Assembly (NCBI GenBank): GCA_963716585.1
Contig: CAVQTN010000004.1
Span: forward strand, 371,993 to 435,992
Length of the DNA stretch: 64,000 bases
Direction: 5' to 3'
Source of the DNA: an uncultured Chloroflexia bacterium
GTDB lineage: Bacteria > Chloroflexota > Limnocylindria > QHBO01
In this document: positions 10,437 to 37,883 of the stretch, piece by piece
Layout of the letters: the number at the start of each line of letters is the position of its first letter
Position numbering within the stretch: position 1 is the first letter of the stretch
Translations under genes and position numbers: made by a program
The notes under the pieces: model-generated
Told to the model about the DNA's origin: nothing
Database searches by the model: none
What the model saw: only the letters and a program-made list of their open reading frames with translations

Positions 10437-11636
10437 TCAGGCGTTCGACGCGCGGGAAGCGAAGGGCAGCCGCCATCGGCGTGCCGGGGCCGGGGATTCC
10501 ATCGCCGCCTGGCGCGTCACCAGCCGAGCGATGTTGTGCAGGTCCGTGCTGATCCGATCCTTCGGGAACTTGGTGATCAGCGGGCGTCCCTCGTTGGCCG
10601 CGATCACGGCCTTGGGGCCGTTCGACACGACCGTCGCCGAGATGGGAAGGCCCAGCGACTGCGACATGTCATGCAGGGACACGCCATGGTTCGCGCGGTT
10701 CACGATCACGCGCACGACGTCGCCGAGACCGACCTGCCGAGCCAGCTCGAGGAACTGTGACGAGTTTCGGATTGGGCCGACCTCCGGTGTGACCACCAGA
10801 AAGATCTCGTTCGCCACGGTCAGCATGGCCATCGTCCGATCGTCGTAGCCGGGGTGGTTGTCGATGATGACGTAGGCGTGGTGCGAACGTCCCCATTTCA
10901 ACGCGGCGAGCAGCAGATCAACCCCGACCTTCTCCGAGTCTCCCGGCTCGTTGCCCCACGTCAGCACCCGCAGACCGCTGCCCTGATGGGTCGCGGTGAG
11001 GTGCTCGAAGGCCGCATCGTTCCACTCCGACCGGTCACTGTCGGCAAGATCGACGAGGCCCATGCTGCTCGGAACCTGGAGCACTGAGGTCACGTTGCCG
11101 ACCCCGACGTCGGCATCGAGCAGCAGGACGCGCTCCCGCGTCTGCTCACGCAGCGCGACCGCCAGGTTGACCGCGATCGTCGTCTTCCCGACGCCGCCCT
11201 TTGGAGCGAAGACGCTGATGGCCCGACCCTCGCCGATCGGCCCGGCCGCGTCGTCCACCGGCGTGGCGGACGGATCCGCGGGCATCTCGTGTCCCGCACG
11301 AATCAGCAGAGCCTGCAGCCGATACACAAGAGCGTCGGCCTGCAGTGGCTTGAGGGCGAGTTCGTCGGTGGCGCCCCATTGCTCGGTGAAGTCGGGCGAC
11401 TCGTCGCCGAAGAGCAGTAGCGTGGGGGTCGCGCGCTCGCTGTGGAGAAGATCGTGGAGCTGGCGGACGGTCCCCGGATCGGCGTCGCAGTCGAGGACCG
11501 CGAGATCAAACGTCGCGCCCTCCGACAGCGCCTCGCCGATCTTCTCGTGTACGACGGCGAAGCCGGCTCGATCGAGCGCGCTGACGTACTCGTCGGCATC
11601 TCCGGCGAGCGCCAGGAGGACGGTGGGTCGCTCCAT
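10437..11636 (-). CDS. Receiver-like domain plus MinD/ParA-type ATPase (CpaE/TadZ-like)
   Basis: N-terminal REC-like segment (FDLAVLD...LALKP), deviant Walker A APKGGVGKTT, LLDAD; RBS-like GAAGG before ATG 11636. Confidence 0.85.
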   Translation of the reverse strand: MERPTVLLALAGDADEYVSALDRAGFAVVHEKIGEALSEGATFDLAVLDCDADPGTVRQLHDLLHSERATPTLLLFGDESPDFTEQWGATDELALKPLQADALVYRLQALLIRAGHEMPADPSATPVDDAAGPIGEGRAISVFAPKGGVGKTTIAVNLAVALREQTRERVLLLDADVGVGNVTSVLQVPSSMGLVDLADSDRSEWNDAAFEHLTATHQGSGLRVLTWGNEPGDSEKVGVDLLLAALKWGRSHHAYVIIDNHPGYDDRTMAMLTVANEIFLVVTPEVGPIRNSSQFLELARQVGLGDVVRVIVNRANHGVSLHDMSQSLGLPISATVVSNGPKAVIAANEGRPLITKFPKDRISTDLHNIARLVTRQAAMESPAPARRWRLPFASRASNA

Positions 11637-11745
11637 TCGAATCCTTCCCGGTGGGGGTACGGTGACTGACCGCACCAGTGTCGGACCGACCGAACCGGAC
11701 GACAATGGGACCGGGGGCCAATGGCCGCCGCAGAAGGTACTAGCG

Positions 11746-12477
11746 CTACGCCCCGCGCAGCATGCGCATGCCGCACTTCGGACAGTAGAACGCGGCGGCA
11801 CTCCCCGCCTCGAACCCGCAATGGGCACAGGTCAGCCCTGACCGGGCGCCGAGGGTCGGCAGCCGTGCCTGATCGGCGGCGCCGAGGCTGTAGCCGGAGG
11901 CCACCACCTGCTGGTAGAGGCTGGAGAGCAGCTTCTGGCCGACGCGTTCGGTGTCGCCGCGCAGCCCCTTGCCGCCCCAGCCGACGACGGCGCGCACGAT
12001 CAGCTCGCCCGAGAGCTCGTCCCAGTGGCTCGCCAGACCGCCGACCACGGCGTTGTAGCTCGGGTAGCCGCTGGTATCGGTCTCCCCGTAGAGGAGCCCG
12101 CAGACGAACGTGTCGACCGTCATGTCGAGGGCGTCGGTCAGCTCGAGCACATACAGCCCGTGGCGCCCGATCGGTCCGAGCTCGCGCCGCGCCAGGACCC
12201 ATTGTTGCATCTCGTTGAAACGCTCCAGCGTGGGGGCCGCGTCGCTGTACTCCAATGGCAGCGGCTCGATCACCTCGGGCGGGGTCTGGCTCAGCGGCTC
12301 GACGATGCCAGGCAGCATCGCGACCACGCCCGCGTCGGCCTGCATCCGCAGCCCGTCGCTGCTGCGCGCCACGAAATTGAGCTTGAGCGCGTACTGCTGC
12401 GCAGACACATCCTCCTGCACCGGCGTCGGCGGCCCAGGCTGGTCCTCGTCCTTCTTCCTGTGTCTCAGAAACGACAT
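11746..12477 (-). CDS. Hypothetical protein with C-terminal zinc ribbon
   Basis: RBS GAGGAG, coding-like codon bias, C-terminal CAHCG...YCPKCG. Confidence 0.8.
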   Translation of the reverse strand: MSFLRHRKKDEDQPGPPTPVQEDVSAQQYALKLNFVARSSDGLRMQADAGVVAMLPGIVEPLSQTPPEVIEPLPLEYSDAAPTLERFNEMQQWVLARRELGPIGRHGLYVLELTDALDMTVDTFVCGLLYGETDTSGYPSYNAVVGGLASHWDELSGELIVRAVVGWGGKGLRGDTERVGQKLLSSLYQQVVASGYSLGAADQARLPTLGARSGLTCAHCGFEAGSAAAFYCPKCGMRMLRGA

Positions 12478-26610: not shown

Positions 26611-28086
26611 TCAGGCGCCGTCCGCGGAGGCTCGCACCGCGGCGCGGCGCCAGCGGAGCGTGAAGATGGCGCCCGGGCGGCGCTGCTCAAGCTCGACGGT
26701 CCCGCCCTGGGCCTGCATCAGGGCGTGCACCAGGTAGAGGCCCAGCCCGAGCCCGCGCCCCGCGCTGAGCCGATCGCGGAACAGATGCTGCGCCACCTCG
26801 TCCGAGATGCCCGGCCCACCGTCGACGATCCGCACTGCCACCGGGTCGCCCGCGGCGACCTCGACGCGGATGGGGGTGCCAGGATTCGAGTAGCGATCCG
26901 CATTGATCAGCAGGTTGGTGATCGCCTGCTCGGCGAAGTGACGATCACCAATGACGGTCGGGTGTCCACGCATCTGGAAGGTGACCTGCCGCTCGCTGCC
27001 GCGCGCCCGTAGCCGCTCAAGCGCCGATTCGAGTGCCGCCGCCAGCTCGAAGGGCTCGCGGCGCGCCTGGACCTGCCCCGCGTCGGCGCGAGAGAAAAGC
27101 TCCAGGCGCTCCAGGATGCCGATCGCCGCGTCGACTGACTCGAGCGCGCGGCGGGAGTGAGTCCCGCTGCTCGGCAAGCTCGGATCGCGCTGCGACAGCT
27201 CGATGCGTGCCTTGGCCACGGCCAGCGGGTTGCGCAGCTCGTGTGCCACGAAGCTGGCGAAACGTGACAGGCGGCGGCGCTCGTCCTCCTCCTTGCCCAC
27301 GTCGCGCAGCAGAAGGACGCAGCCGCCCCCGGGGATGGGGGTGCCCTCCACGTCGACGATCAGGTCGCGACCCGACATTGGCAGCCGGACCGTGATCCGT
27401 CGTCGCAGCGGCTCGGCCTGGGCACGCAGCTGCGGCAGCTCGTCGCGGGCGAGACGGTTGCCGCCCTCGTCACGAGGTTCCGCCGCCGCGGCCCAGTCGT
27501 CGAGGGAGCGTTCGAAGAAGCTGCGCCCGAAGGTGCGCAGCGCCGCCCTGTTGCCGTAGGTGCCGCGGCCCTCCGAGTCGTAGACCATCAGGGGCTCGGG
27601 GATCGCCTCGGCGACCTCCTGGAGGCGGGCTCGCTCACGTTCGGCGGCGCGAAGCGCCACGTCCAGGTCACGCCGCGCATGCTCAGCAGCCGCACGCTCG
27701 CCATGGGCGCGTTGCTCGGCCGCGGCGCTCGCGTCGCGCGCCCGGGCGGTGGCGCCGATCTCGCGGTCCGCACGAAGCGCCATGAGGACCACCAGGGGCG
27801 AGCCGAGGATGAACGAGAGCAGCCGGATGGCGTCGCCGACGCCGATCGACGCGCGGTCATGTGGCAACAGGGTCAGCACGATGACGATCAGCCCCGCGGC
27901 GCCGTAGGCGTACGCCGCCGCGGCAGCGCCCAGCCCGAGGCCGACGAGCGCGACCATCAGGATCAGCAGCCCGGTGAACGGTGCGAGCTCGGTGAGGAAT
28001 CCGGCCAATAGCACCGCCACGAGGGCGCTGCCCGCACCGACCAGGGCGCCCAGGATGGCATTCCGCCCGGGGCGCAGGAGACTCAT
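26611..28086 (-). CDS. Membrane sensor histidine kinase (TM region, PAS-like, HisKA, HATPase)
   Basis: FVAHELRNPL H-box, NLLINADRYS N-box, DGGPGI and GLGLGL G-boxes. Confidence 0.9.
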   Translation of the reverse strand: MSLLRPGRNAILGALVGAGSALVAVLLAGFLTELAPFTGLLILMVALVGLGLGAAAAAYAYGAAGLIVIVLTLLPHDRASIGVGDAIRLLSFILGSPLVVLMALRADREIGATARARDASAAAEQRAHGERAAAEHARRDLDVALRAAERERARLQEVAEAIPEPLMVYDSEGRGTYGNRAALRTFGRSFFERSLDDWAAAAEPRDEGGNRLARDELPQLRAQAEPLRRRITVRLPMSGRDLIVDVEGTPIPGGGCVLLLRDVGKEEDERRRLSRFASFVAHELRNPLAVAKARIELSQRDPSLPSSGTHSRRALESVDAAIGILERLELFSRADAGQVQARREPFELAAALESALERLRARGSERQVTFQMRGHPTVIGDRHFAEQAITNLLINADRYSNPGTPIRVEVAAGDPVAVRIVDGGPGISDEVAQHLFRDRLSAGRGLGLGLYLVHALMQAQGGTVELEQRRPGAIFTLRWRRAAVRASADGA

Positions 28087-29277
28087 TCAGTCATCGCTCC
28101 GCTGCAGAGGCGCCGAGCCTAGCATCCGGTTGCGACGGCGGTCGCCCGCGGTCCCCCGCGCTCGCGCGCGCCCGAGGCGCTGGCGCGCGGCCGCGATGCG
28201 GCGCACCGGATCTCCGCCGATGCGACGCCGATCGAGCGCCTCGGGGTGCTCACCGCGCGCGATTGCCGCCAGCAGCTGCGAGGCGCGATCCAGCTGGCCT
28301 GCCTCGGTGAGCAGCTGGACGAGGCTGAACCAGCGGCCGGCCAGGGTCGGTGGCTCGCTCGCCACCCGCTCGAGCAGCTCCGCCGCGCGCGCGTCGTGCC
28401 CGGCCCGACGGTGCGCGGCAATCGCGGCGCGCACATCCGAGAAGGCGGGTGGCATGTCGAGCGCCTCCAGGTAGTTCAGCAGCAGCTCGGCGTTCTCCGC
28501 GCGATCGGCCACCGGACCGCGACGCACGTGGGCATCCCGAAAATCGGCGAGCAGGCCGCGCAGCTCGCGCTCCAGCCAGCGACGCGCCCCGGAGCCGCGC
28601 TCGTAGCGATCCACCAGGGAGCGCATGAACGCAGCACCGCGCAGCCGCTGGCCTGTGACCGCATACGCCTCGCGCAACGACGCATGGACCAACGTGTCGT
28701 GGCTGGCATCCAGCAGCACCAGGCGCTCCAGTGCTCCGAGCCAATCGTCGAGCCGCCCATGCTCGCGGTAGTAGGCCGTTGCGTAGCGCAGCCAGTAGCG
28801 CTCACTGTGCTCCCGCCAATCCTCACCGGTGATGTGATGCTCAACGATCCAGCGCTCCTGCGCCGCCGGGCCGGCCAGGAACACCTCCGCCGGCACCCGA
28901 AATCCGGCGACACTGCGCCACTGCGGCTGGTGCCAGCGGCTGGTGCGCTCCGCGGCCGGGCGGCGCAAGCGCGGCGCTGCCGGTTGCTCGTGCTCCTCGA
29001 GCGGCCAGTCGAGAGTGATCGCCGTGCCGTTCTCGAGGCCGTGGTCGTAGTGCAGTCGGCGCAGCGGATCGCGTAGTTCCGCCCAGGCGCGGTTGAGGAG
29101 CGACGTCCGTCGAGTGGAGAGCTCTGATGACGCGCTGCGGTCGGGGTGATGGCGCAGGACCGCCTCGCGGAAGGCGGCGCGCAGCTCGGCGGTGGTCGCG
29201 GACGGATCGGCGCCGAGGACCTCGTAGAAGTCCCGGCTCTCGACGCGCAGTCCATCGGCAACCGTTTCGAACACCAT
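28087..29277 (-). CDS. J-domain protein with helical (TPR-like) C-terminus
   Basis: DFYEVLGADPSAT...HHPDRS...LNRAWAELRDPLRRLHYD J-domain with an intact HPD motif. Confidence 0.85.
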   Translation of the reverse strand: MVFETVADGLRVESRDFYEVLGADPSATTAELRAAFREAVLRHHPDRSASSELSTRRTSLLNRAWAELRDPLRRLHYDHGLENGTAITLDWPLEEHEQPAAPRLRRPAAERTSRWHQPQWRSVAGFRVPAEVFLAGPAAQERWIVEHHITGEDWREHSERYWLRYATAYYREHGRLDDWLGALERLVLLDASHDTLVHASLREAYAVTGQRLRGAAFMRSLVDRYERGSGARRWLERELRGLLADFRDAHVRRGPVADRAENAELLLNYLEALDMPPAFSDVRAAIAAHRRAGHDARAAELLERVASEPPTLAGRWFSLVQLLTEAGQLDRASQLLAAIARGEHPEALDRRRIGGDPVRRIAAARQRLGRARARGTAGDRRRNRMLGSAPLQRSDD

Positions 29278-29333
29278 CCGGCTGAGTCTAGCGTCGGTCC
29301 TGAACGCCCGGAAAAGTCGGTATGCTGCGCGGC

Positions 29334-30317
29334 ATGGTCGCCACCCCCAGCCACGCCGGGCATCTGCTCATGATCGGCGGCGCCGAGGACAAGCTTCGTC
29401 AGCGGCAGATCCTGTCCCGCTTCGTCTCGCTGGCCGGCGCCAGCGACGGGCAGATCGTCATCGTTTCGACGGCTTCGTCCCTCGGCGACGAGGCCACCGA
29501 ACTGTACGTCGCCCTGTTCCGCGCGATGGGCGTCCCGGAAGTTCGCGGGCTGCGCCCGCTGAGCCGTGACGAGGCCGATGACGCGGCCGTGGTCGCGACG
29601 CTCGACGAGGCGACTGGCATCTTCATGACCGGCGGCAACCAGCTCCGCCTGTCGAGCGTCATCGCCGGCACGCGGCTGGGTCACGCCATCACCGCGCGGC
29701 ATCGGGCCGGGGCCATTGTGGCCGGGACGAGCGCCGGTGCCTCCGCCCTGGGCAGCCACATGGTCGCCTTCGGGACGAGCGGCACGACGCCAAAGCAGCG
29801 CATGACACAGATGAGTGCCGGGCTGGGGATGCTCCCCGGTGTATTGATCGACCAGCATTTCGAGCAGCGAAACCGCATCGGTCGACTGCTGGCGCTGGTC
29901 GCGCAGTCGCCCGCCTTGCTCGGCATCGGGCTGGACGAGGACACCGCCGGGCTGGTCAGCCCGGGCGGCATCATGGAGGTGCTGGGCAAGGGATCGGTCA
30001 CCATCCTTGACCCCGCACGGCTCCAGACTGACGCATACGAGGTGAAGCGCCATCGGCCGATCATGGTCAGCGGCGTCATCCTGCATTCGCTTCCGTCGGG
30101 CTACCGATTCGACCTGCGGCGCCGCAGCCTGCTTGCGCCGCTGCGCCCGGTCAGCGCGAGCGAGCGCGACCTGCGGCTGGTGCGCACGGCGGGCGACCGA
30201 ACGCGACGGCTGATCCGGCGCATCGCCGCGGAGGGCGCCGACGACGCGGCGCCCGAGCGATCGCGCCGCCGCGCGCTGCGCGCGCGCCGCGATCGCGATG
30301 AGGATGCGAGCGAGTGA
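29334..30317 (+). CDS. cphB: Cyanophycinase
   Basis: LMIGGAEDK, FMTGGNQLRL, GTSAGA nucleophile, IDQHFEQRNRIGRL, GLDEDT; start set by TATGCT-7nt-ATG. Confidence 0.95.
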   Translation: MVATPSHAGHLLMIGGAEDKLRQRQILSRFVSLAGASDGQIVIVSTASSLGDEATELYVALFRAMGVPEVRGLRPLSRDEADDAAVVATLDEATGIFMTGGNQLRLSSVIAGTRLGHAITARHRAGAIVAGTSAGASALGSHMVAFGTSGTTPKQRMTQMSAGLGMLPGVLIDQHFEQRNRIGRLLALVAQSPALLGIGLDEDTAGLVSPGGIMEVLGKGSVTILDPARLQTDAYEVKRHRPIMVSGVILHSLPSGYRFDLRRRSLLAPLRPVSASERDLRLVRTAGDRTRRLIRRIAAEGADDAAPERSRRRALRARRDRDEDASE

Positions 30318-33157
30318 CCCGCGAGACGAAGCGAGCCGTGCCGGCCGCGAAGACGGCCGCCGTGGCCAAGCCGGTCACGCGGAACAGGGTCGCATCCCGC
30401 AATGGTCCCGCGCTCCTCCCCGCCCCGAGCCTGCGCATCGTCGAGACGCGCGTCTACCGCGGACCGAGCTACTGGAGCTACGAGCCCGCGATCAAGTTGA
30501 TCGTCGACCTCGGCGTGCTCGAGGAGTTCCCGTCGAACACGATCCGCGGGTTCGTCGAGGGCCTGCTGGACCTGCTCCCGGCAGTCGGCCGGCACAGCTG
30601 CTCAACCGGCAAGGCCGGGGGCTTCGAGAAGCGGCTGCGAGACGGCACGTGGGCCGGTCACGTCGCCGAGCACATCGCGCTGCAGCTGCAGCGCGAAGCC
30701 GGCACCGAGGTCGGACGCGGCAAGACACGCGGCACCGGCGAACCGGGCCGCTACCACGTGGTGTACGCCTACGCCGAGGAGAGCGTCGGGGTCGCCGCCG
30801 GTCGGCTGGCGGTGCGCCTGGTCAACCACCTGGTCGAGGCCGATCCCGCCTTCGACTTCGGCGCCGAGCTCGAGAAGCTGATCCTTCTCGCCGAGAAGGC
30901 CGCCTTCGGACCGTCCACTCAGGCGATCCTCGACGAGGCCGCCATGCGCGACATCCCGGCCATCCGGCTCAACGAGCAGTCGCTGGTGCAGCTGGGCCAC
31001 GGCGTCCACCAGAAGCGGATCCGCGCCACCATGACCTCGCTGACGTCCTCGCTGGGGGTGGACATCGCCAGCGACAAGAAGCTCACCAATCGGCTGCTGG
31101 CCGGGACCGGCGTCCCGGTGCCGCGCTCGGAGGTGGTCCGCGACGAGGAGGAGGCGGTCAAGGCCGCAGCGGTCATTGGTCACCCGGTGGCGGTCAAGCC
31201 ACTCGACGGCAACCATGGCCGCGGCGTGATGTTGAACCTGGCCGACGAGACGGCGGTGCGCGGCGGCTACGCCGTCGCGCGCTCGCAGTCACGCCACGGC
31301 TCCGTGGTGGTCGAGAGCTACCTGGCCGGCAACGACTACCGCTGCCTGGTGATCGGCGGCGTGCTGCGCGCCGTCGCACAGCGTCTCCCGGCGCATGTCG
31401 AGGGTGACGGCAGGCACCCCCTGGCCGAGCTGGTCGAAGCGACCAACGCCGACCCGCGGCGCGGGATCGGTCACGAAAAGGTGCTCACCCGCATCAAGAT
31501 CGATGACGAGTCGGTGCTCTACGCCCGCGAGCAGGGCTTCGAGCTGAGCGACGTACCCCCGCGCGGCACGCGCGTCTACCTCAAGCGCACCGGCAACATG
31601 AGCACCGGCGGCATCAGCATCGACCGGACCGACGAGATCCATCCCGACAACGCCGAGATCGTCGAGCTCGCCGCGCGCGTGGTCGGGCTCGACATCGCCG
31701 GCATCGACCTCGTCTGCCCGGACGTGTCGCTGCCCATTCGCGAGACGGGGGGTGGGATCGTGGAGGTCAACGCCGCGCCCGGCTTCCGGATGCACACCCA
31801 TCCGACCGAGGGCGAGGCGCAATACGTCGCCAAGCCGGTCATTGACCTGCTCTTCCCGCCGGGCAGCGACTCGCGCATCCCGATCGTGGCGGTCACCGGC
31901 ACGAACGGCAAGACCACCACAGCCCGCATGATCACCCACATCATGAAGGGCCTCGGCCACAAGGTCGGCATGACCTCCACCGACGGGATCTTCGTCGACG
32001 GTCGCGTGGTCCGTCGCGGCGACATGAGCGGCCCACGCTCGGCATCCACCGTGCTGCAGAACCCCACGGTCGATTTCGCCGTGTTCGAGGTGGCCCGCGG
32101 AGGCATCCTGCGCGAGGGGCTCGGCTACCAACGTAACGACGTGGCCGTCGTCCTGAACGTCAGCGGCGACCACCTCGGGCTGGGCGGCATCACCTCGCTC
32201 AAGCAGCTCGCCGGCGTCAAGCAGGTCGTCGTGGAGGCGGTGCCACGCGACGGTGTGGCAGTGCTCAACGCCGAGGACCCGCTGGTTGCCGCCATGGCCC
32301 GCCACTGCTCCGGATCGGTCATCTACTTCTCGATGGACCCCAGCAACGAGCTGATCCGCCGCCAGTCGTCGCGCGGCCGGCGCGCCGTCACCCTGGAGCC
32401 CGGCACGAACGGCGAGATGATCGTCCTGCGCCAGGGACGCAAGTCGATGCCGATGGCCTGGACGCATCTGCTGCCTGCCACATTCGAGGGTCGAGCCCGC
32501 ATGAACGTGCAGAACGCCCTGGCCGCGACGGCCGCGGCGTGGGCCGCCGGCGCGCACCTGCACGACATCCGCCAGGGACTGCGAACCTTCACGACCTCGT
32601 ACTTCATGGCACCTGGCCGGCTGAACATGTTCGAGCTGGACGGCTACCGCGTCATCGTCGACTACGCGCACAACCCGGCTGCCGTGCAGGCCCTCGGCGA
32701 GTTCGTGGATGCGCTCGCGGAGCCGACCCCAGGCGGACGCCTGCCGCTGGTCAGTGGCAGGCGCATCGCTGTCGCCGCCACCGCCGGCGACCGGCGCGAC
32801 GAGGACATTCGCGAGATCGGTGCAGTTGCCGCCCGATATTTCGACGCGATCATCGTTCGCGAGGACGTGAACCCGCGCGGCCGCCAGCCTGGCCAGACGG
32901 CGGCGCTCATCGAGGAGGGCGTCCGCGACGCGATGGCGGCCGGTGCGCGTTGCCGGTCCGTCGAGATCGAGCTCGATGAGATCGAGGCGACCCGCCGCGC
33001 ACTCGACATGGGGGCCGCGGGCGATGTGGTGGTCGTCTGCGTCGATCGCGCGAACGACGTGTGGAAGGAGCTGCAGCGCCGCCAGCATGGCGCGTCGAGC
33101 GCCATCGCCGGCCCGATACTGGGAGTCGGCGACGACGATGCGACCCTCGTCGGCTAG
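30314..33157 (+). CDS. cphA: Cyanophycin synthetase CphA1
   Basis: N domain with Cx19HxxEH, ATP-grasp (KPLDGNHGRGV, EVNAAPGFRMH), Mur-ligase-like M domain (VTGTNGKTTT, EVARGG, VDYAHN). Confidence 0.96.
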   Translation: MTRETKRAVPAAKTAAVAKPVTRNRVASRNGPALLPAPSLRIVETRVYRGPSYWSYEPAIKLIVDLGVLEEFPSNTIRGFVEGLLDLLPAVGRHSCSTGKAGGFEKRLRDGTWAGHVAEHIALQLQREAGTEVGRGKTRGTGEPGRYHVVYAYAEESVGVAAGRLAVRLVNHLVEADPAFDFGAELEKLILLAEKAAFGPSTQAILDEAAMRDIPAIRLNEQSLVQLGHGVHQKRIRATMTSLTSSLGVDIASDKKLTNRLLAGTGVPVPRSEVVRDEEEAVKAAAVIGHPVAVKPLDGNHGRGVMLNLADETAVRGGYAVARSQSRHGSVVVESYLAGNDYRCLVIGGVLRAVAQRLPAHVEGDGRHPLAELVEATNADPRRGIGHEKVLTRIKIDDESVLYAREQGFELSDVPPRGTRVYLKRTGNMSTGGISIDRTDEIHPDNAEIVELAARVVGLDIAGIDLVCPDVSLPIRETGGGIVEVNAAPGFRMHTHPTEGEAQYVAKPVIDLLFPPGSDSRIPIVAVTGTNGKTTTARMITHIMKGLGHKVGMTSTDGIFVDGRVVRRGDMSGPRSASTVLQNPTVDFAVFEVARGGILREGLGYQRNDVAVVLNVSGDHLGLGGITSLKQLAGVKQVVVEAVPRDGVAVLNAEDPLVAAMARHCSGSVIYFSMDPSNELIRRQSSRGRRAVTLEPGTNGEMIVLRQGRKSMPMAWTHLLPATFEGRARMNVQNALAATAAAWAAGAHLHDIRQGLRTFTTSYFMAPGRLNMFELDGYRVIVDYAHNPAAVQALGEFVDALAEPTPGGRLPLVSGRRIAVAATAGDRRDEDIREIGAVAARYFDAIIVREDVNPRGRQPGQTAALIEEGVRDAMAAGARCRSVEIELDEIEATRRALDMGAAGDVVVVCVDRANDVWKELQRRQHGASSAIAGPILGVGDDDATLVG

Positions 33158-34732
33158 GCGATCCTGAACGGGACATAGCCGGCGCCGGTCAGCCAGTCGA
33201 ATACCTCGCCTCGCTCGGCGTGCGTCATGACGGCGACCACGTCGCCAGCGTCCGCGCGCGATGCCAGCTCGGCCAGGGCAGCCACTTCCGACGGATAGCT
33301 GTCCACCTCGCGGTCGAAGCCACCCTCGCGCAGGCCGGAACGCAGCAGCTCGTTCATGGCTGGCAGGTCGCGCCCACGCAGGTAGTGCCGCTTCTCGGCG
33401 ATCACGACCTCATCAGCCCCGCCGCCCGCGATGGCGCCGAGCGAGCGAAGCACCTCGTCGCTGCGATCGCCGGCCGTGCCCAGGGCGAGCAACACTCGGC
33501 CGGCGGCCACGCCGCGGGCGACCTCCAGCAGGCCCCTCAGGCCGGCCTCGTTGTGCGCGAAGTCGACCAGCACACGAACGCCGTCGCGCTCGAACAGGTT
33601 GAGCCGGCCGGGATTGGCCGACGCATCAGGCGTGAAGCTGCGCAGCGCGTCGCCGATCGCGCCGGCGGCGAACCCGAGCGCATCGCACGCGGCGGTGGCA
33701 GCCAGTGCATTGGCGAGGTTATGCCGCGACAGGCCGGCGAGCGTGATCGGGATCTCTTCGGCGCGCACCACGCGCGAAGACGGGCCGTCGGCGCGACGGA
33801 TCACCACCCATCCGCGATCGAGGACGCAGGCGCGTCCACCGGCCTCCAGGGCAACGTCGACCGCCGGCGCGCCCGGATCGAGGCTGAAGACGTACCAGCG
33901 CGCGCGCGTCTCGCGGCGCATCGCCCACACCAGCGGATCTTCGCCGTTGAGCACGGCCCAGCCATCGCGCCGCGTGATGCGCACCACGGTGGCTTTGACC
34001 TCGGCCAGCTCGTCGAGCGTGTCAATTCCCTGCAGCCCGAGATGGTCCGGGCTGACGTTGGTGACCACGCCGACGTCGTTGGCGGCATAGCCGATGCCGC
34101 GCAGCAGGATGCCGCCGCGCGCCGTCTCGAGCACCGCGAGGTCGAGCCCTGGCTCGCCAAGAACCCGGCCGGCGCCGCCGAACCCGGTCCAGTCTCCTGC
34201 CTCGACCTGCCGGCCGCGCAGCTCGATTCCGTCGGAGTTGGTCATGCCCACCGCCAGGCCGACGGCGCTGGCCACGTGGGCGATCAGCCGCGTGGTGGTG
34301 CTCTTACCGTTCGTGCCCGTGACGGCCACGATCGGCATGCGCTGACGGGCCAGCCGCGGGCAGCGAGCCGAGTGCCGTGGCCTGCAATGCTCGCAGCTCG
34401 CGCGTTTCGTCCGTGCGACCGAGCGCCAGGCGCGCCGCCGCGCTGCCGATCACCTGCGAGACGGTGCGGCGACGCCACGGGTAGGCGACCAGCGCGCGCA
34501 GGCCGTCGACGGATCGACGAGAGGTGATGCGCGGCGCCGGCATGCCAAGGGCCACGTGCAGCCGTCGGACCGCCAGCGCTGCCGATGCGGCGACCTCGGC
34601 AGCGGCTCCCGCCTCGTCGCCGACGAACTCGAGCTTCACCGCGGGACGGGTGAAAAAGCGGTTCGGCCCATCGAGCACCCGCAGCTCCAGCAGCTCGACG
34701 CCGTTGCCCGGAGCCTGCGCGTCGTGCGGCAT
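33154..34732 (-). CDS. CphA paralogue: short N-like segment plus Mur-ligase (M) domain, no ATP-grasp; one apparent 1-nt frameshift near 34359
   Basis: ELLELRVLDGPNRF resembles the CphA start (LRIVETRVYRGPSYW). Removing one base from the GGG at 34358-60 joins it to MPIVAVTGTNGKSTTT...LETARGGILLRG...DHLG...VDFAHN, giving about 525 aa. Confidence 0.82.
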
Positions 34733-34739
34733 GACGGTG

Positions 34740-34747
34740 AGTATACT
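34740..34747. promoter_or_regulatory. Palindromic AGTATACT giving a TATACT -10 on both strands
   Basis: Sits in a 25-bp divergent intergenic gap: 7 nt to ATG 34732 (-) and 10 nt to GTG 34758 (+). Confidence 0.65.
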
Positions 34748-34757
34748 TTCGCCTCCC

Positions 34758-36012
34758 GTGACTTCCGCGCCGTCGCCAACCGAGCTCCAGCGCCTCGCCG
34801 CCGCGCGTCAGGATGCCTTCCTCGACGAGCTGCGCGGGCTGGTCGGCATCGACTGCGGCTCGTACACGCGCGACCGGCGTCGAACCAGGTCGCCGACTTC
34901 TGCGCCGATGCGCTGCGCGGGCTCGGCGCGACGGTCGAGCGCATCCCGCACCGGCGCGACGAGGCGCCGCTGGGCGACCTGGTGATCGGCCGCCTCGACG
35001 GCGACGGGCCGCACTGCTGCTGATCGGCCACATGGACACCGTCTTCGAGCCAGGGACGGCGGCTGCGCGCCCGTTCCGGATTGGCGGGTCACCGGGCGTT
35101 CGGGCCGGGCGTCACCGACATGAAGGGCGGCCTGCTGGCCGGCTTCCACGCCCTGGCGGCCTCCAGGCTGCCGGGGCACGACCGACGGTGACCTACGTCT
35201 GCAACCCGGACGAGGAGATCGGCTCGCCGTTCAGCACGCTGCACATCCGCGAGCTCGGTCGCCAGCAGCACGACGCTGGCGTTCGTTCTCGAGTGCGCCC
35301 GCGCCAACGGCGACATCGTCAGCGCGCGCAAGGGCGATCGCCGACTTCCAGATCGACGGTCACCGGCCGCGCGGCGCACGCCGGCGTCGAGCCGGAGAAG
35401 GGACGCAGCGCGATCCTCGAGGCGGCGCACAAGGTGGTGGCGCTGCACGAGCTCAACGGCCGCTGGCCGAGCGTCACGCGTCAATGCCGGCGTGATCGAG
35501 GGCGGGACACGCCCCAACGTGGTGGCGGAGCGCTGCGATCGTGAAGGTCGACCTGCGCGCGGCCACCGTCGCCGAGTTCGACACCGCGGTCGAGACCCTC
35601 CAGCGGGTCGTCGCACAGGCAAGCGTCCCGGGACGACCGGCGAAGCGCTGCGCGTCTCGGGCCACGCGCCAATGGAGAAGTCGCCGGCCACCGCGCGCCT
35701 CGTGGCGCTGGCGCAGGACGTCGCCGCACGAGCATGGGCTTCGACCTTTCCGACGCTGCGACCGGAGGGGCAAGCGACGCCAACACCACCTCCGGCATGC
35801 GGGCTGCCGACCCTCGACGGGCTGGGACCGATCGGCGGCGACGATCACTCCGCCGACGAGTGGCTCGACGCTCCAGCGTCGTGCCGCGTGTGGCGCTGCT
35901 CGCCGGGCTCATCGCCCGCGCGTCGGAGGGGGTCGCACCGTCGGCGAGCGACCTTGCCGGTGAGCGCCGGGAGGTGCTCCGAGTCCGACCCTGTAGAATC
36001 GGGATTCCGTGA
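34758..36012 (+). CDS. M20 family metallopeptidase (carboxypeptidase G2-like), split by several indels; 3' end approximate
   Basis: LLIGHMDTVF, GPGVTDMKGG, NPDEEIGSP, GRAAHAGVEPEKG, GTRPNVV, DGLGPIGGDDHSADEW recovered across frames. Confidence 0.85.
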
Positions 36013-36465
36013 CCGACGAGTTTCGCCACCGCACGCGGCTCGAAGTGCGCTTCCGGGATGTCGACGCCTTCGGCCACGTCAACAACGCGGTCTTTCTGTC
36101 CTACATCGAGCAGGGGCGCATCAGCTACCTGGCGCAAGCGCTGCAGCTGCCCGATCGACCCTGACCGAGTGGAGGAGCTGCCCTTGATCCTGGCGCGAAT
36201 CGAGGTCGACTACCGGGCGCCGATCTTCTTCGGCCAGCCGCTGGAGGTCGGGACCCGCATCGACTGGATCGGTCGCAGCAGCTTCAGCATGTCGCACCGG
36301 ATGACGGCCGGTGACGACGGCCATATTGTTGCCGAGGCATCGAGCGTGCTCGTCAGCTATGACTACGCCGCCGCGAGACCCATGCCCGTGCCGGACCCGT
36401 GGCGCGCCCGCTTCGAGACGGCCGAAGGTCGCTCGCTACGCCGCACAGCACAGGGAGTCGCATGA
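36009..36465 (+). CDS. Acyl-CoA thioesterase (4HBT/YbgC family), one indel near 36150
   Basis: VRFRDVDAFGHVNNAVFLSYIEQGR, then IEVDYRAPI...IGRSSF in the next frame. Confidence 0.88.
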
Positions 36466-37883
36466 CCGATCCGCAGCGCTTCGACCTGCTCATCCTCGGC
36501 GGCGGGATGAGCTATGTCGGCGCCATCCGCGCCGCGCAGCTCGGCCTGAAGGTCGCCATCGTCGAGCGCGACCGGCTCGGCGGCACGTGCCTGAACCGCG
36601 GTTGCATCCCGTCGAAGGCCTTGCTCGAGACCGCAGACCTGCTGCATCGGGTCACCGCCCAGGGTGCCGAGTTCGGCCTGACCCAGGGAGAGCAGGTGGG
36701 CCTCGACTACCCGATGCTCGGCAAACGACGCGATGCGGTTGTCGACAAGCACGTCAAGGGCGTCGAGTTCCTCATGAAGAAGAACGGCATCAGCGTGCTG
36801 CGCGGCAACGGCACGCTGACCGCGCCGACCAGCGTGCACGTCAACGGCGGCGAGGCCGGCGAGCTGGATGCCGGCGCCACCGACCTGATACTGGCCACCG
36901 GATCGGCGCCGCGCAGCCTGCCGGGGCTCGAGATCGACGGCGAGCGGATCATCACCTCGGACGAGGCGCTACGCGCAACGACGTGCCCAGGCGGGTGACG
37001 ATCGTGGGCAGCGGTGCCATCGGGGTCGAGTGGGCCAGCATGTACCGAGACTTCGGCAGCGAGGTCCACCTCGTCGAATTCCTGGACCGCGTCGTCCCGC
37101 TCGAGGAGCCGGACGTCAGCAAGGAGCTCAATCGCGTCTTCAAGCGGCGCGGGATCACCATCTACACCGCCTCGACCATCGCCACCGACAGCATCGAGCG
37201 CACCGAGGGCGGACTGAAGTTCGCGGTCACGCCCAATGAAGGTGACGGGCGCACCGAGGTCGAGACGGACGTGATCCTGGTGGCGGTCGGCCGACGGCCG
37301 CTGACCGACGGCATCGGCCTGGAGAACATCCCGGGCGTGGAGCTGGAGCGCGGCTACGTCAAGGTCGACGAGTACATGCGCACCGGCGTCGAGCACCTGT
37401 ACGCCATCGGCGACATCGTCCCCGGCTTTCAGCTGGCGCACGTCGCCAGCCACGAGGCCGTCGTGGCCGTCGAGAAGATCGCCGGCCACGATCCCGAGCC
37501 GGTGCGCATGGATCTCGATGCCGCGCGTCACGTTCTGCCGGCCGCAGATCGCCAGCGTCGGAATCGGCGAGCAGCAGGCACGGGAGCAGGGCCGCGAAGT
37601 CAAGGTCGGTTCGTTCCCGTTCCGCGCCCTGGGCAAGGCGACGATCGTCGGCGAGAGTCGACGGCTTCGCCAAGATGATCGCCGATGCGCGAGACCGGCG
37701 TGCTGCTCGGCGCGCATATCATCGGTCCGCACGCCGGCGACCTCCTCGCCGAGCCGACCCTGGCGCTGCTGGTGGAGGGGACCGTCGGGCGAGATCGCCA
37801 TGTCGGTGCACGCACACCCGACCCTGACCGAAGTGCTCGCCGAGGCCGCCCTGGCGGTCGACGGCGCAGCGATCCACGTCTGA
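36462..37883 (+). CDS. lpdA: Dihydrolipoyl dehydrogenase (E3), frameshifted in this sequence
   Basis: GGTCLNRGCIPSK redox disulfide, GSGAIGVE, YAIGDIV, HAHPTLTEV. Confidence 0.93.

Follow-up and report, generated by a model that had tools for sequence, protein, structure and literature searches.

We report a protein family that combines cyanophycin synthetase's N domain with its Mur-ligase-like M domain but has no ATP-grasp (G) domain, and whose genes are linked to cphA and cphB. The member described here is encoded in a 64,000-nucleotide stretch of DNA from an uncultured Chloroflexia bacterium of the class Limnocylindria (contig CAVQTN010000004.1; the whole stretch is called the window below, and the region of the gene is about 70% G+C), where its gene lies tail-to-tail with a cphB-cphA pair. 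In the literature, the synthesis of cyanophycin, a nitrogen-storage polymer, is assigned to one enzyme with three domains, CphA1, and CphA2 is described as a G-only recycling variant. The N-M protein has the reciprocal composition, its ancestry is of the CphA type, its catalytic residues are retained and its family is conserved. A conserved and widespread N-M enzyme with an intact M site, encoded beside cphA in uncultivated soil phyla, would be the missing reciprocal variant of CphA2, and suggests that two enzymes instead of one build or edit cyanophycin in some soil bacteria.

Domain architecture of the N-M ligase

The ligase gene and its parts are as follows.
33154-34732, minus strand: gene for the G-less CphA-type N-M ligase, 525 aa without the extra base 34356; two open reading frames (ORFs) joined by comparison with P0001/L082
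34358-34732, minus strand: N domain, residues 1-125, CphA-type fold without Cx19HxxEH (hhalign, AlphaFold2, Foldseek)
33631-34347, minus strand: Mcore, residues ~129-367 (Pfam Mur_ligase_M, 75 bits)
34317-34297, minus strand: P-loop GTNGKST, within Mcore
within Mcore, minus strand: Mg-ligand Glu in LETARGG
34047-34042, minus strand: catalytic Asp-His, within Mcore
33157-33630, minus strand: Mlid, residues ~368-525, with PGRLN, DFAHNEAG, TAGDR and EKRHYLRGR (Pfam Mur_ligase_C, 52 bits)

The C-terminal 397 residues of the ligase form a full Mur-ligase-like M domain (PF08245, 75.3 bits with a cutoff of 24; PF02875, 52.4 bits with a cutoff of 28.4), and no ATP-grasp/RimK family of Pfam matched the protein at E <= 0.1. 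The N domain runs straight into the P-loop of the M domain, and the protein is 525 aa long compared with 870-950 aa in CphA1. The M-domain motifs quoted in a preliminary description of this DNA (TGTNGKSTTT, ETARGGILLRG, DHLG, GRLN, VDFAHN and GDR) are all present. Comparison of profiles and structures placed this M domain with CphA and not with the Mur or FolC ligases, as had been proposed. The cyanophycin synthetase model TIGR02068 scored 384.6 bits, over model positions 475-849 only and without reaching its cutoff of 850, whereas the best Mur model, murE TIGR01085, scored 107 bits (cutoff 257). A search of the PDB with the family profile gave 318 bits for CphA1 structures and 75-82 bits for MurE, and the M domain is 43% identical to that of the neighbouring CphA. 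An AlphaFold2 model of the whole protein (predicted local distance difference test, pLDDT, 82; predicted template modelling score, pTM, 0.82) had the CphA1 structures 7wae, 7lgj and 7lg5 as its best Foldseek matches, with E values between 1e-35 and 1e-33 compared with 1e-20 for MurE. NCBIfam holds no model for the N-M ligase family.

The N-terminal 125 residues matched no Pfam family, PF18921 included. The likeness to the start of CphA that had been noted at first (ELRVLDGPNRF versus ETRVYRGPSYW) is a BLASTP match of short length (E = 0.004) with the N-terminus of CphA, and proved to be part of a homologous domain. The alignment by hhalign of a profile of 34 family N parts with a CphA N-domain profile gave a probability of 94.8% and E = 5e-8 over 121 columns. 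The AlphaFold2 model of the N part alone had a pLDDT of 87.8, and the top 14 PDB matches of this model in Foldseek were all N domains of CphA1 or CphA2 (TMq 0.50-0.66), followed by unrelated folds at a TMq of about 0.3. On the evidence of profile comparison and predicted structure, we conclude that the N part is homologous to the CphA N domain.

According to PMC9262961, Cx19HxxEH is the primer-generating peptidase motif of the CphA1 N domain. The motif is carried by the CphA of the window (HSCS...GHVAEH, read directly off the translation). The translated N part of the ligase contains neither Cys nor HxxEH and therefore lacks the peptidase site; the preliminary description was thus right that both this site and the ATP-grasp domain are missing. 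In a short form of the N domain, the hhalign alignment also has a gap of about 35 residues after strand 2 and ahead of the helix that corresponds to the CphA active-site helix; the polymer-tethering helix and the Cys loop of CphA1 lie in this segment. An N domain is present in every family member. Members of the family are ~520-600 aa long and are recognized by an N-terminal RxLxGPN hairpin, by the absence of HxxEH from the N domain and by DFAHNEAG and xHYLRGR in a CphA-type M domain; the window protein displays all of these features.

The ligase resembles CphA1 (Synechocystis sp. UTEX2470, 7LG5; Trichodesmium, 7WAC) in its N-domain fold, in its complete Mcore and Mlid, in having the same P-loop, Mg ligands, Asp-His, PGRxN, AHN, GDR and RGR motifs, in an M domain that is 36-43% identical and in having its gene clustered with cphA and cphB. 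It differs from CphA1 in lacking the whole ATP-grasp G domain, the part that elongates the backbone, in lacking Cx19HxxEH (and, in the short form, the ~35 residues), in its own residues at Su537, Su750, Su778 and Su801, and in a one-residue insertion before RGR. CphA2 (7TA5, 8FXH) is likewise a reduced CphA relative that has a non-catalytic N domain, is encoded alongside CphA1 and retains one ligation chemistry. However, CphA2 combines an active G domain with a truncated, inactive M domain, according to PMC10273328, whereas the ligase has a full M domain with intact catalytic residues and no G domain. The reduction is therefore reciprocal, and the description of the ligase as a mirror image of CphA2 is apt. 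MurE and MurC-F, the pseudomurein pMur ligases, FolC and MurT share with the ligase the Mur_ligase_M/Mur_ligase_C folds and an ATP-dependent acyl-phosphate chemistry; unlike it, MurE and other Mur ligases score 75-107 bits where CphA scores 318-385, and the Mur ligases have a UDP-binding Mur N domain in place of the CphA N fold and a cell-wall (dcw) cluster in place of a cyanophycin context.

A G-less CphA relative was also observed between cphA and cphB in a Gemmatimonadaceae metagenome-assembled genome (MAG; DASTYE010000010.1, locus L074, ORF of 377 aa at 10938-12071, plus strand). Its pattern of live and dead sites is the reverse of that in the N-M ligase: Cx19HxxEH is intact in its N domain, whereas in its M-core-like region the P-loop is degenerate (ITGGGPRHET) and DHLG is absent. 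It was found once. The preliminary description knew of no characterized protein with the N-M architecture, and our literature search, which took in the 2022-2023 papers on CphA1, CphA2 and their bioinformatics, likewise returned no description of an N-M relative of cyanophycin synthetase; subscription journals lay outside its coverage and an earlier mention is possible.

Distribution, ancestry and genomic linkage

Searching a collection of 5.8 billion proteins resulted in at least 120 intact clusters of 512-556 aa, with 95-100% query coverage and 65-99% identity. A second search with a Thermomicrobiales member added another set of more than 120 clusters, full-length at about 545 aa, which brings the total to more than 240. 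All family clusters from both protein searches came from metagenomes or MAGs. The database names are "Mur ligase family protein" in NCBI and "cyanophycin synthetase" in JGI; the latter is a mislabel and would inflate gene-based surveys of cyanophycin producers. A phmmer search with the 125-aa N fragment against 1.84 billion representative proteins gave 63 clusters, which were mostly contig fragments and have little bearing on the size of the family. When one genome per GTDB species was scanned, 39 loci with the N-M architecture were detected. Their hosts were Chloroflexota (Limnocylindria, Thermomicrobiales and other Chloroflexia) and Actinomycetota, together with MAGs labelled Methylomirabilota, Thermohalobaculum, Sulfotelmatobacter and Verrucomicrobiia.

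The ancestry of the M domain was examined in a neighbor-joining (NJ) tree of 40 family M domains and 73 CphA M domains from Chloroflexota, Actinomycetota, Bacteroidota, Firmicutes, Gemmatimonadota and the cyanobacterial SuCphA1. E. coli K-12 MurC-F served as the outgroup since the fetched loci yielded no Mur-ligase outgroup. The N-M family, with the window protein inside it, formed one clade that was sister to all sampled CphA1 M domains, and MurC-F fell far outside; the grouping with CphA1 and not with ordinary Mur ligases agrees with the proposal made at first. In 200 NJ bootstrap replicates on a 64-taxon subset, the CphA1 M domains were monophyletic in 89.5% and the N-M family in 70%; as NJ is a crude method, the placement of the root is provisional. 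Subclades of the family mirrored those of the adjacent CphA, which points to a long shared history and co-inheritance of the two proteins. Two other origins were considered and rejected. An origin in which the neighbouring cphA was recently duplicated and the copy then lost its G domain is ruled out, because none of the 200 NJ bootstraps placed the family inside the clade of the neighbouring CphA. An ordinary Mur or FolC ligase is ruled out by the NCBIfam, PDB-profile and Foldseek scores together with the NJ tree.

The partners of the ligase gene in the window are the following.
29322-30317, plus strand: cphB, cyanophycinase, 331 aa (TIGR02069, 250.8 bits with a cutoff of 126.6; Peptidase_S51)
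30314-33157, plus strand: cphA, complete cyanophycin synthetase 1, 947 aa (TIGR02068, 1143 bits with a cutoff of 850)

The pair is complete, in agreement with the preliminary description. The cphA product matched the Pfam families Cyanophycin_syn, ATP-grasp, Mur_ligase_M and Mur_ligase_C, and the end of cphB overlaps the start of cphA by 4 nt. The ligase gene is convergent with cphB-cphA, and the 4-nt overlap that had been reported between the ligase gene and the cphA stop is the palindrome CTAG at 33154-33157, which is common to both stop codons (TAG of cphA at 33155-33157, stop of the ligase gene at 33154-33156). Since the two stops share these bases, there is no room for a terminator between the genes, and their transcripts should overlap in antisense. 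The same tail-to-tail overlap, of 4-6 nt, was seen at loci L083 and L084.

We surveyed the linkage of homologues to cphA by targeted tblastn and Pfam-labelled gene calls; clustering of ORFs of >=120 aa was uninformative at ~70% G+C, where spurious ORFs merge. A cphA gene, complete or truncated by the contig end, adjoined the ligase gene in 37 of the 39 genome loci, usually followed by cphB, and cphA-cphB was adjacent in a further six of nine protein look-ups (about 90% of the examined loci overall). In nearly all of the genome loci the two genes converged and were 0-150 nt apart; at L036 and L070 the ligase gene was followed by cphB and then cphA in the same direction. The Pfam-labelled gene calls showed the same cluster at L083, L084, L087, L088 and L089. 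The linkage with cphA thus holds in two gene orders and in subclades down to ~36% identity. The neighbouring cphA was split into two frames or pieces in tblastn at L028, L056 and L070, where assembly error or decay is possible.

Other partners of the ligase gene varied by clade. An M20 peptidase gene lay upstream of it and divergent, at a distance of ~25-80 nt, in 23 of the 39 genome loci and also at L083 and L084; it was absent from the Actinomycetota and Thermomicrobiales subclades. The copies in question are these.
34776-35931, plus strand, window: M20 (CPG2-like) peptidase gene, divergent, with several frameshifts (tblastn with the intact L083 orthologue matches three frames)
6817-7977 of L083 and 6812-7978 of L084: intact M20 peptidase orthologues

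The closest model to the M20 peptidase was NF004788, glutamate carboxypeptidase, at 315 bits, short of its cutoff of 349. The M20 peptidase is a candidate new member of the cyanophycin cluster, perhaps a hydrolase of beta-Asp-Arg or a C-terminal trimming hydrolase; no such peptidase is mentioned for cyanophycin clusters in the 2022-2023 papers on CphA1, CphA2 and their bioinformatics that were consulted. In the Thermomicrobiales types, a gene for an Rce1-like membrane protease (CPBP, PF02517) directly preceded the ligase gene in the same orientation (L085, 6027-6974; L086, 6013-6978; L087-L090, L031 and L033, three of these loci being without cphBA), and in this subfamily ParB was encoded upstream of both. 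An M14 peptidase gene was found beside the ligase gene at L085. CphZ is an AstE/aspartoacylase-like M14 enzyme, according to the CphZ paper; the L085 peptidase was not counted as CphZ, as it matches the classical Peptidase_M14 Pfam family, and this match gives family membership only.

Catalytic residues and proposed function

PMC9427784 lists K499, T500, T522, E558, R731 and H748 as the ATP- and Mg-binding residues of the TeCphA1 M domain, with an aromatic residue at 692 that stacks on the adenine, and PMC9262961 reports that mutation of D585/H586 inactivates the M domain of SuCphA1. Equivalents of all these residues, including the adenine-stacking aromatic, were kept in 36-40 of the 40 aligned family members, and the equivalents of R731 and H748 were invariant in Mlid. 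This conservation extends to members whose identity to the window protein is only 36-45%, which is the signature of an enzyme selected for catalysis. The inactive M domain of CphA2, by comparison, is truncated (PMC10273328).

The most likely function, argued by analogy with CphA1, is that of an active stand-alone ligase of the cyanophycin M type, which would act on beta-aspartyl side chains in trans with the neighbouring CphA1. Like the CphA1 M domain, the ligase would bind ATP-Mg and phosphorylate an Asp beta-carboxylate of a cyanophycin-type substrate, and the incoming amino acid would then be attached through an isopeptide bond. The likeliest acceptor would be a cyanophycin chain from the neighbouring CphA1 that ends in Asp or is under-decorated, and the likeliest donor would be Arg or a related residue. 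An active enzyme of this kind would be a natural uncoupling of backbone synthesis from side-chain decoration, useful for tailored cyanophycins and poly-Asp derivatives; it could explain polymer initiation or quality control, and would give a handle on the evolutionary assembly of the three-domain synthetase. We consider the case for this function to be evenly balanced, because the M domain of the neighbouring CphA1 is intact and the substitutions specific to the family suggest a changed acceptor or donor.

Several observations weigh against a trans-acting cyanophycin ligase. The catalytic residues of the M domain are all intact in the CphA1 of the window, and beside it a second Arg-adding activity looks redundant, judging from the sequence. 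At Su537 the family has W, Y or F, and CphA1 has M, T, N or C; Su750 is Glu in the family and P, V or A in CphA1; Su778 is Arg in CphA1 and P, T or S in the family; and Su801, always Asp or Glu in CphA1, is T, K or L in the family. Su750, Su778 and Su801 fall in Mlid. A one-residue insertion produces xHYLRGR in the family at the motif aligned with DNPR of MurE, a type of motif that helps Mur ligases to select the incoming amino acid. Read from the alignment, these family-specific residues hint at a different donor or a different acceptor. No cphA was present in the available short flanks of L009 and L015, and three of six sampled Thermomicrobiales-type loci (L085, L086 and L090) had other genes and no cphBA within 7 kb. 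The window copy of the ligase gene is itself frameshifted.

A wider proposal, which we put forward tentatively, is that the family represents an old independent N-M lineage, sister to the CphA1 M domains. Such a lineage might resemble an ancestor from before the fusion, into which the G domain was inserted later, or might have a distinct chemistry (primer synthesis or addition of a residue other than Arg). Either form would amount to a two-enzyme cyanophycin system, in Chloroflexota and Actinomycetota that are abundant in soil, with a product or a control step that is new relative to cyanobacteria.

Among the narrower alternatives, two appear unlikely to a similar degree. The first is that the ligase is a primer or dipeptide synthase, which would join Arg to Asp that is free or terminates a very short peptide, and whose products (beta-Asp-Arg or minimal primers) would make the slow de novo initiation by CphA1 faster. 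All CphA1s are proposed in PMC9262961 to be very slow in their first ligations, which turn Asp + Arg into beta-Asp-Arg. An enzyme separate from the polymerase, with an invariant bulky aromatic at Su537, other changes in the pocket and a short-form N domain without the segment that holds the polymer-tethering helix and Cys loop of CphA1, would suit such a role. However, the Cx19HxxEH site of the neighbouring CphA1 already supplies primers once any polymer exists, and the presence of an N domain in every member suggests continued binding of a substrate of polymer size.

The second is that the ligase adds a residue other than Arg (for instance Lys, Orn, citrulline or Glu) to the beta-carboxylates of Asp, and that the product would be a mixed cyanophycin. 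The loss of the acidic Su801 and of Arg at Su778, the Glu at Su750 and the insertion in the motif aligned with MurE DNPR are consistent with a changed donor, although the role of Su801 and Su778 in Arg recognition derives from conservation and not from an Arg-bound structure, and although RGR and most of the Mlid residues common to CphA1 are kept. The conserved divergent hydrolase of the M20 type (ArgE/DapE/CPG2-like) could supply or remove such a residue; its absence from the Actinomycetota and Thermomicrobiales subclades argues against this.

More doubtful than either is a substrate unrelated to cyanophycin, that is, another carboxylate-bearing peptide or polymer, with the adjacency to cphA being historical. 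The loci L085, L086 and L090, where the Rce1-like gene still precedes the ligase gene and no cphBA lies nearby, fit this idea, as does the change of upstream partner by clade from M20 peptidase to Rce1-like membrane protease. Against it stand the specifically CphA-type character of both domains and the adjacency of cphA-cphB at ~90% of the examined loci, in subclades down to ~36% identity and in two gene orders. Least likely of all, and in our view very improbable, is a mainly non-catalytic partner that hetero-oligomerizes with CphA1 through Mcore or N surfaces and regulates or scaffolds it: co-diversification with the adjacent CphA and the inter-protomer contacts of Mcore in CphA1 tetramers (PMC9427784) would agree with such a role, but every ATP-binding, Mg-binding and catalytic residue is kept among members that are 36-45% identical, which is unexpected for a purely structural protein, and the inactive M domain of CphA2 is, by contrast, truncated (PMC10273328).

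The frameshift in the window copy and further neighbours

The ligase gene of the window is interrupted by one frameshift.
34356, minus strand: single extra base, the sole gap in the blastn alignment of L082 with the window

As a result the gene is present as two minus-strand ORFs in different frames, one at 34732-34304 (142 aa) that contains the N part and one at 34338-33154 (394 aa) that begins MPIVAVTGTNGKSTTT and contains Mur_ligase_M and Mur_ligase_C. The best database relative, P0001, is 525 aa long, is 99% identical to the window protein and reads through the junction (...LGSLPGLARQRMPIVAV...). It is encoded intact by L082, a Logan assembly contig from SRR28059527, which is 99.89% identical in DNA to window positions 32054-34817 and differs from them by two synonymous substitutions and the one gap only. 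On the minus strand the window reads cccgCggctgg where the intact relative reads cccgggctgg. The preliminary description had given the protein about 525 aa after correction of one homopolymer indel; the length is exact and the indel is single, as shown by P0001 and L082, but it does not lie strictly within a homopolymer run.

The extra base is more likely a local assembly error than a real mutation, since the indels cluster in one stretch and the genes at 26.6-33.2 kb are clean. The ligase frameshift lies at the edge of this indel-dense stretch (~34.4-37.9 kb), which is probably a low-quality assembly. Within it, genes switch frame one to several times relative to their intact L083 orthologues; these are the genes for the M20 peptidase (~34776-35931), a 4HBT thioesterase (~36009-36459) and the E3 lipoamide dehydrogenase (~36462-37880).

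That the window copy is a pseudogene or an assembly artefact from which no full-length protein is made is a reading that concerns this copy and not the family, and we regard it as highly improbable. The extra base at 34356 and the frame changes of the adjoining 34.8-37.9 kb (M20, 4HBT thioesterase and E3 genes) speak for it; the intact, 99.89% identical contig, whose other differences are synonymous, and the clustering of indels beside the clean 26.6-33.2 kb, which points to a local assembly error, speak against it. For the family as a whole, decay of the homologues had been named at first as an outcome that would count against the proposed ligase. What was found instead were intact full-length clusters and a near-identical strain without the frameshift, and a decayed remnant as an account of the family is ruled out by those clusters together with the conserved catalytic residues.

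On the other side of the cluster, cphB is flanked in the window by genes for a DnaJ-domain protein (28087-29277, minus strand) and a PAS/HisKA histidine kinase (26611-28086, minus strand). The same pair was found beside cphB at L083, at L084 and at several loci of the Limnocylindria type, and the two proteins may be regulators of the cyanophycin cluster.

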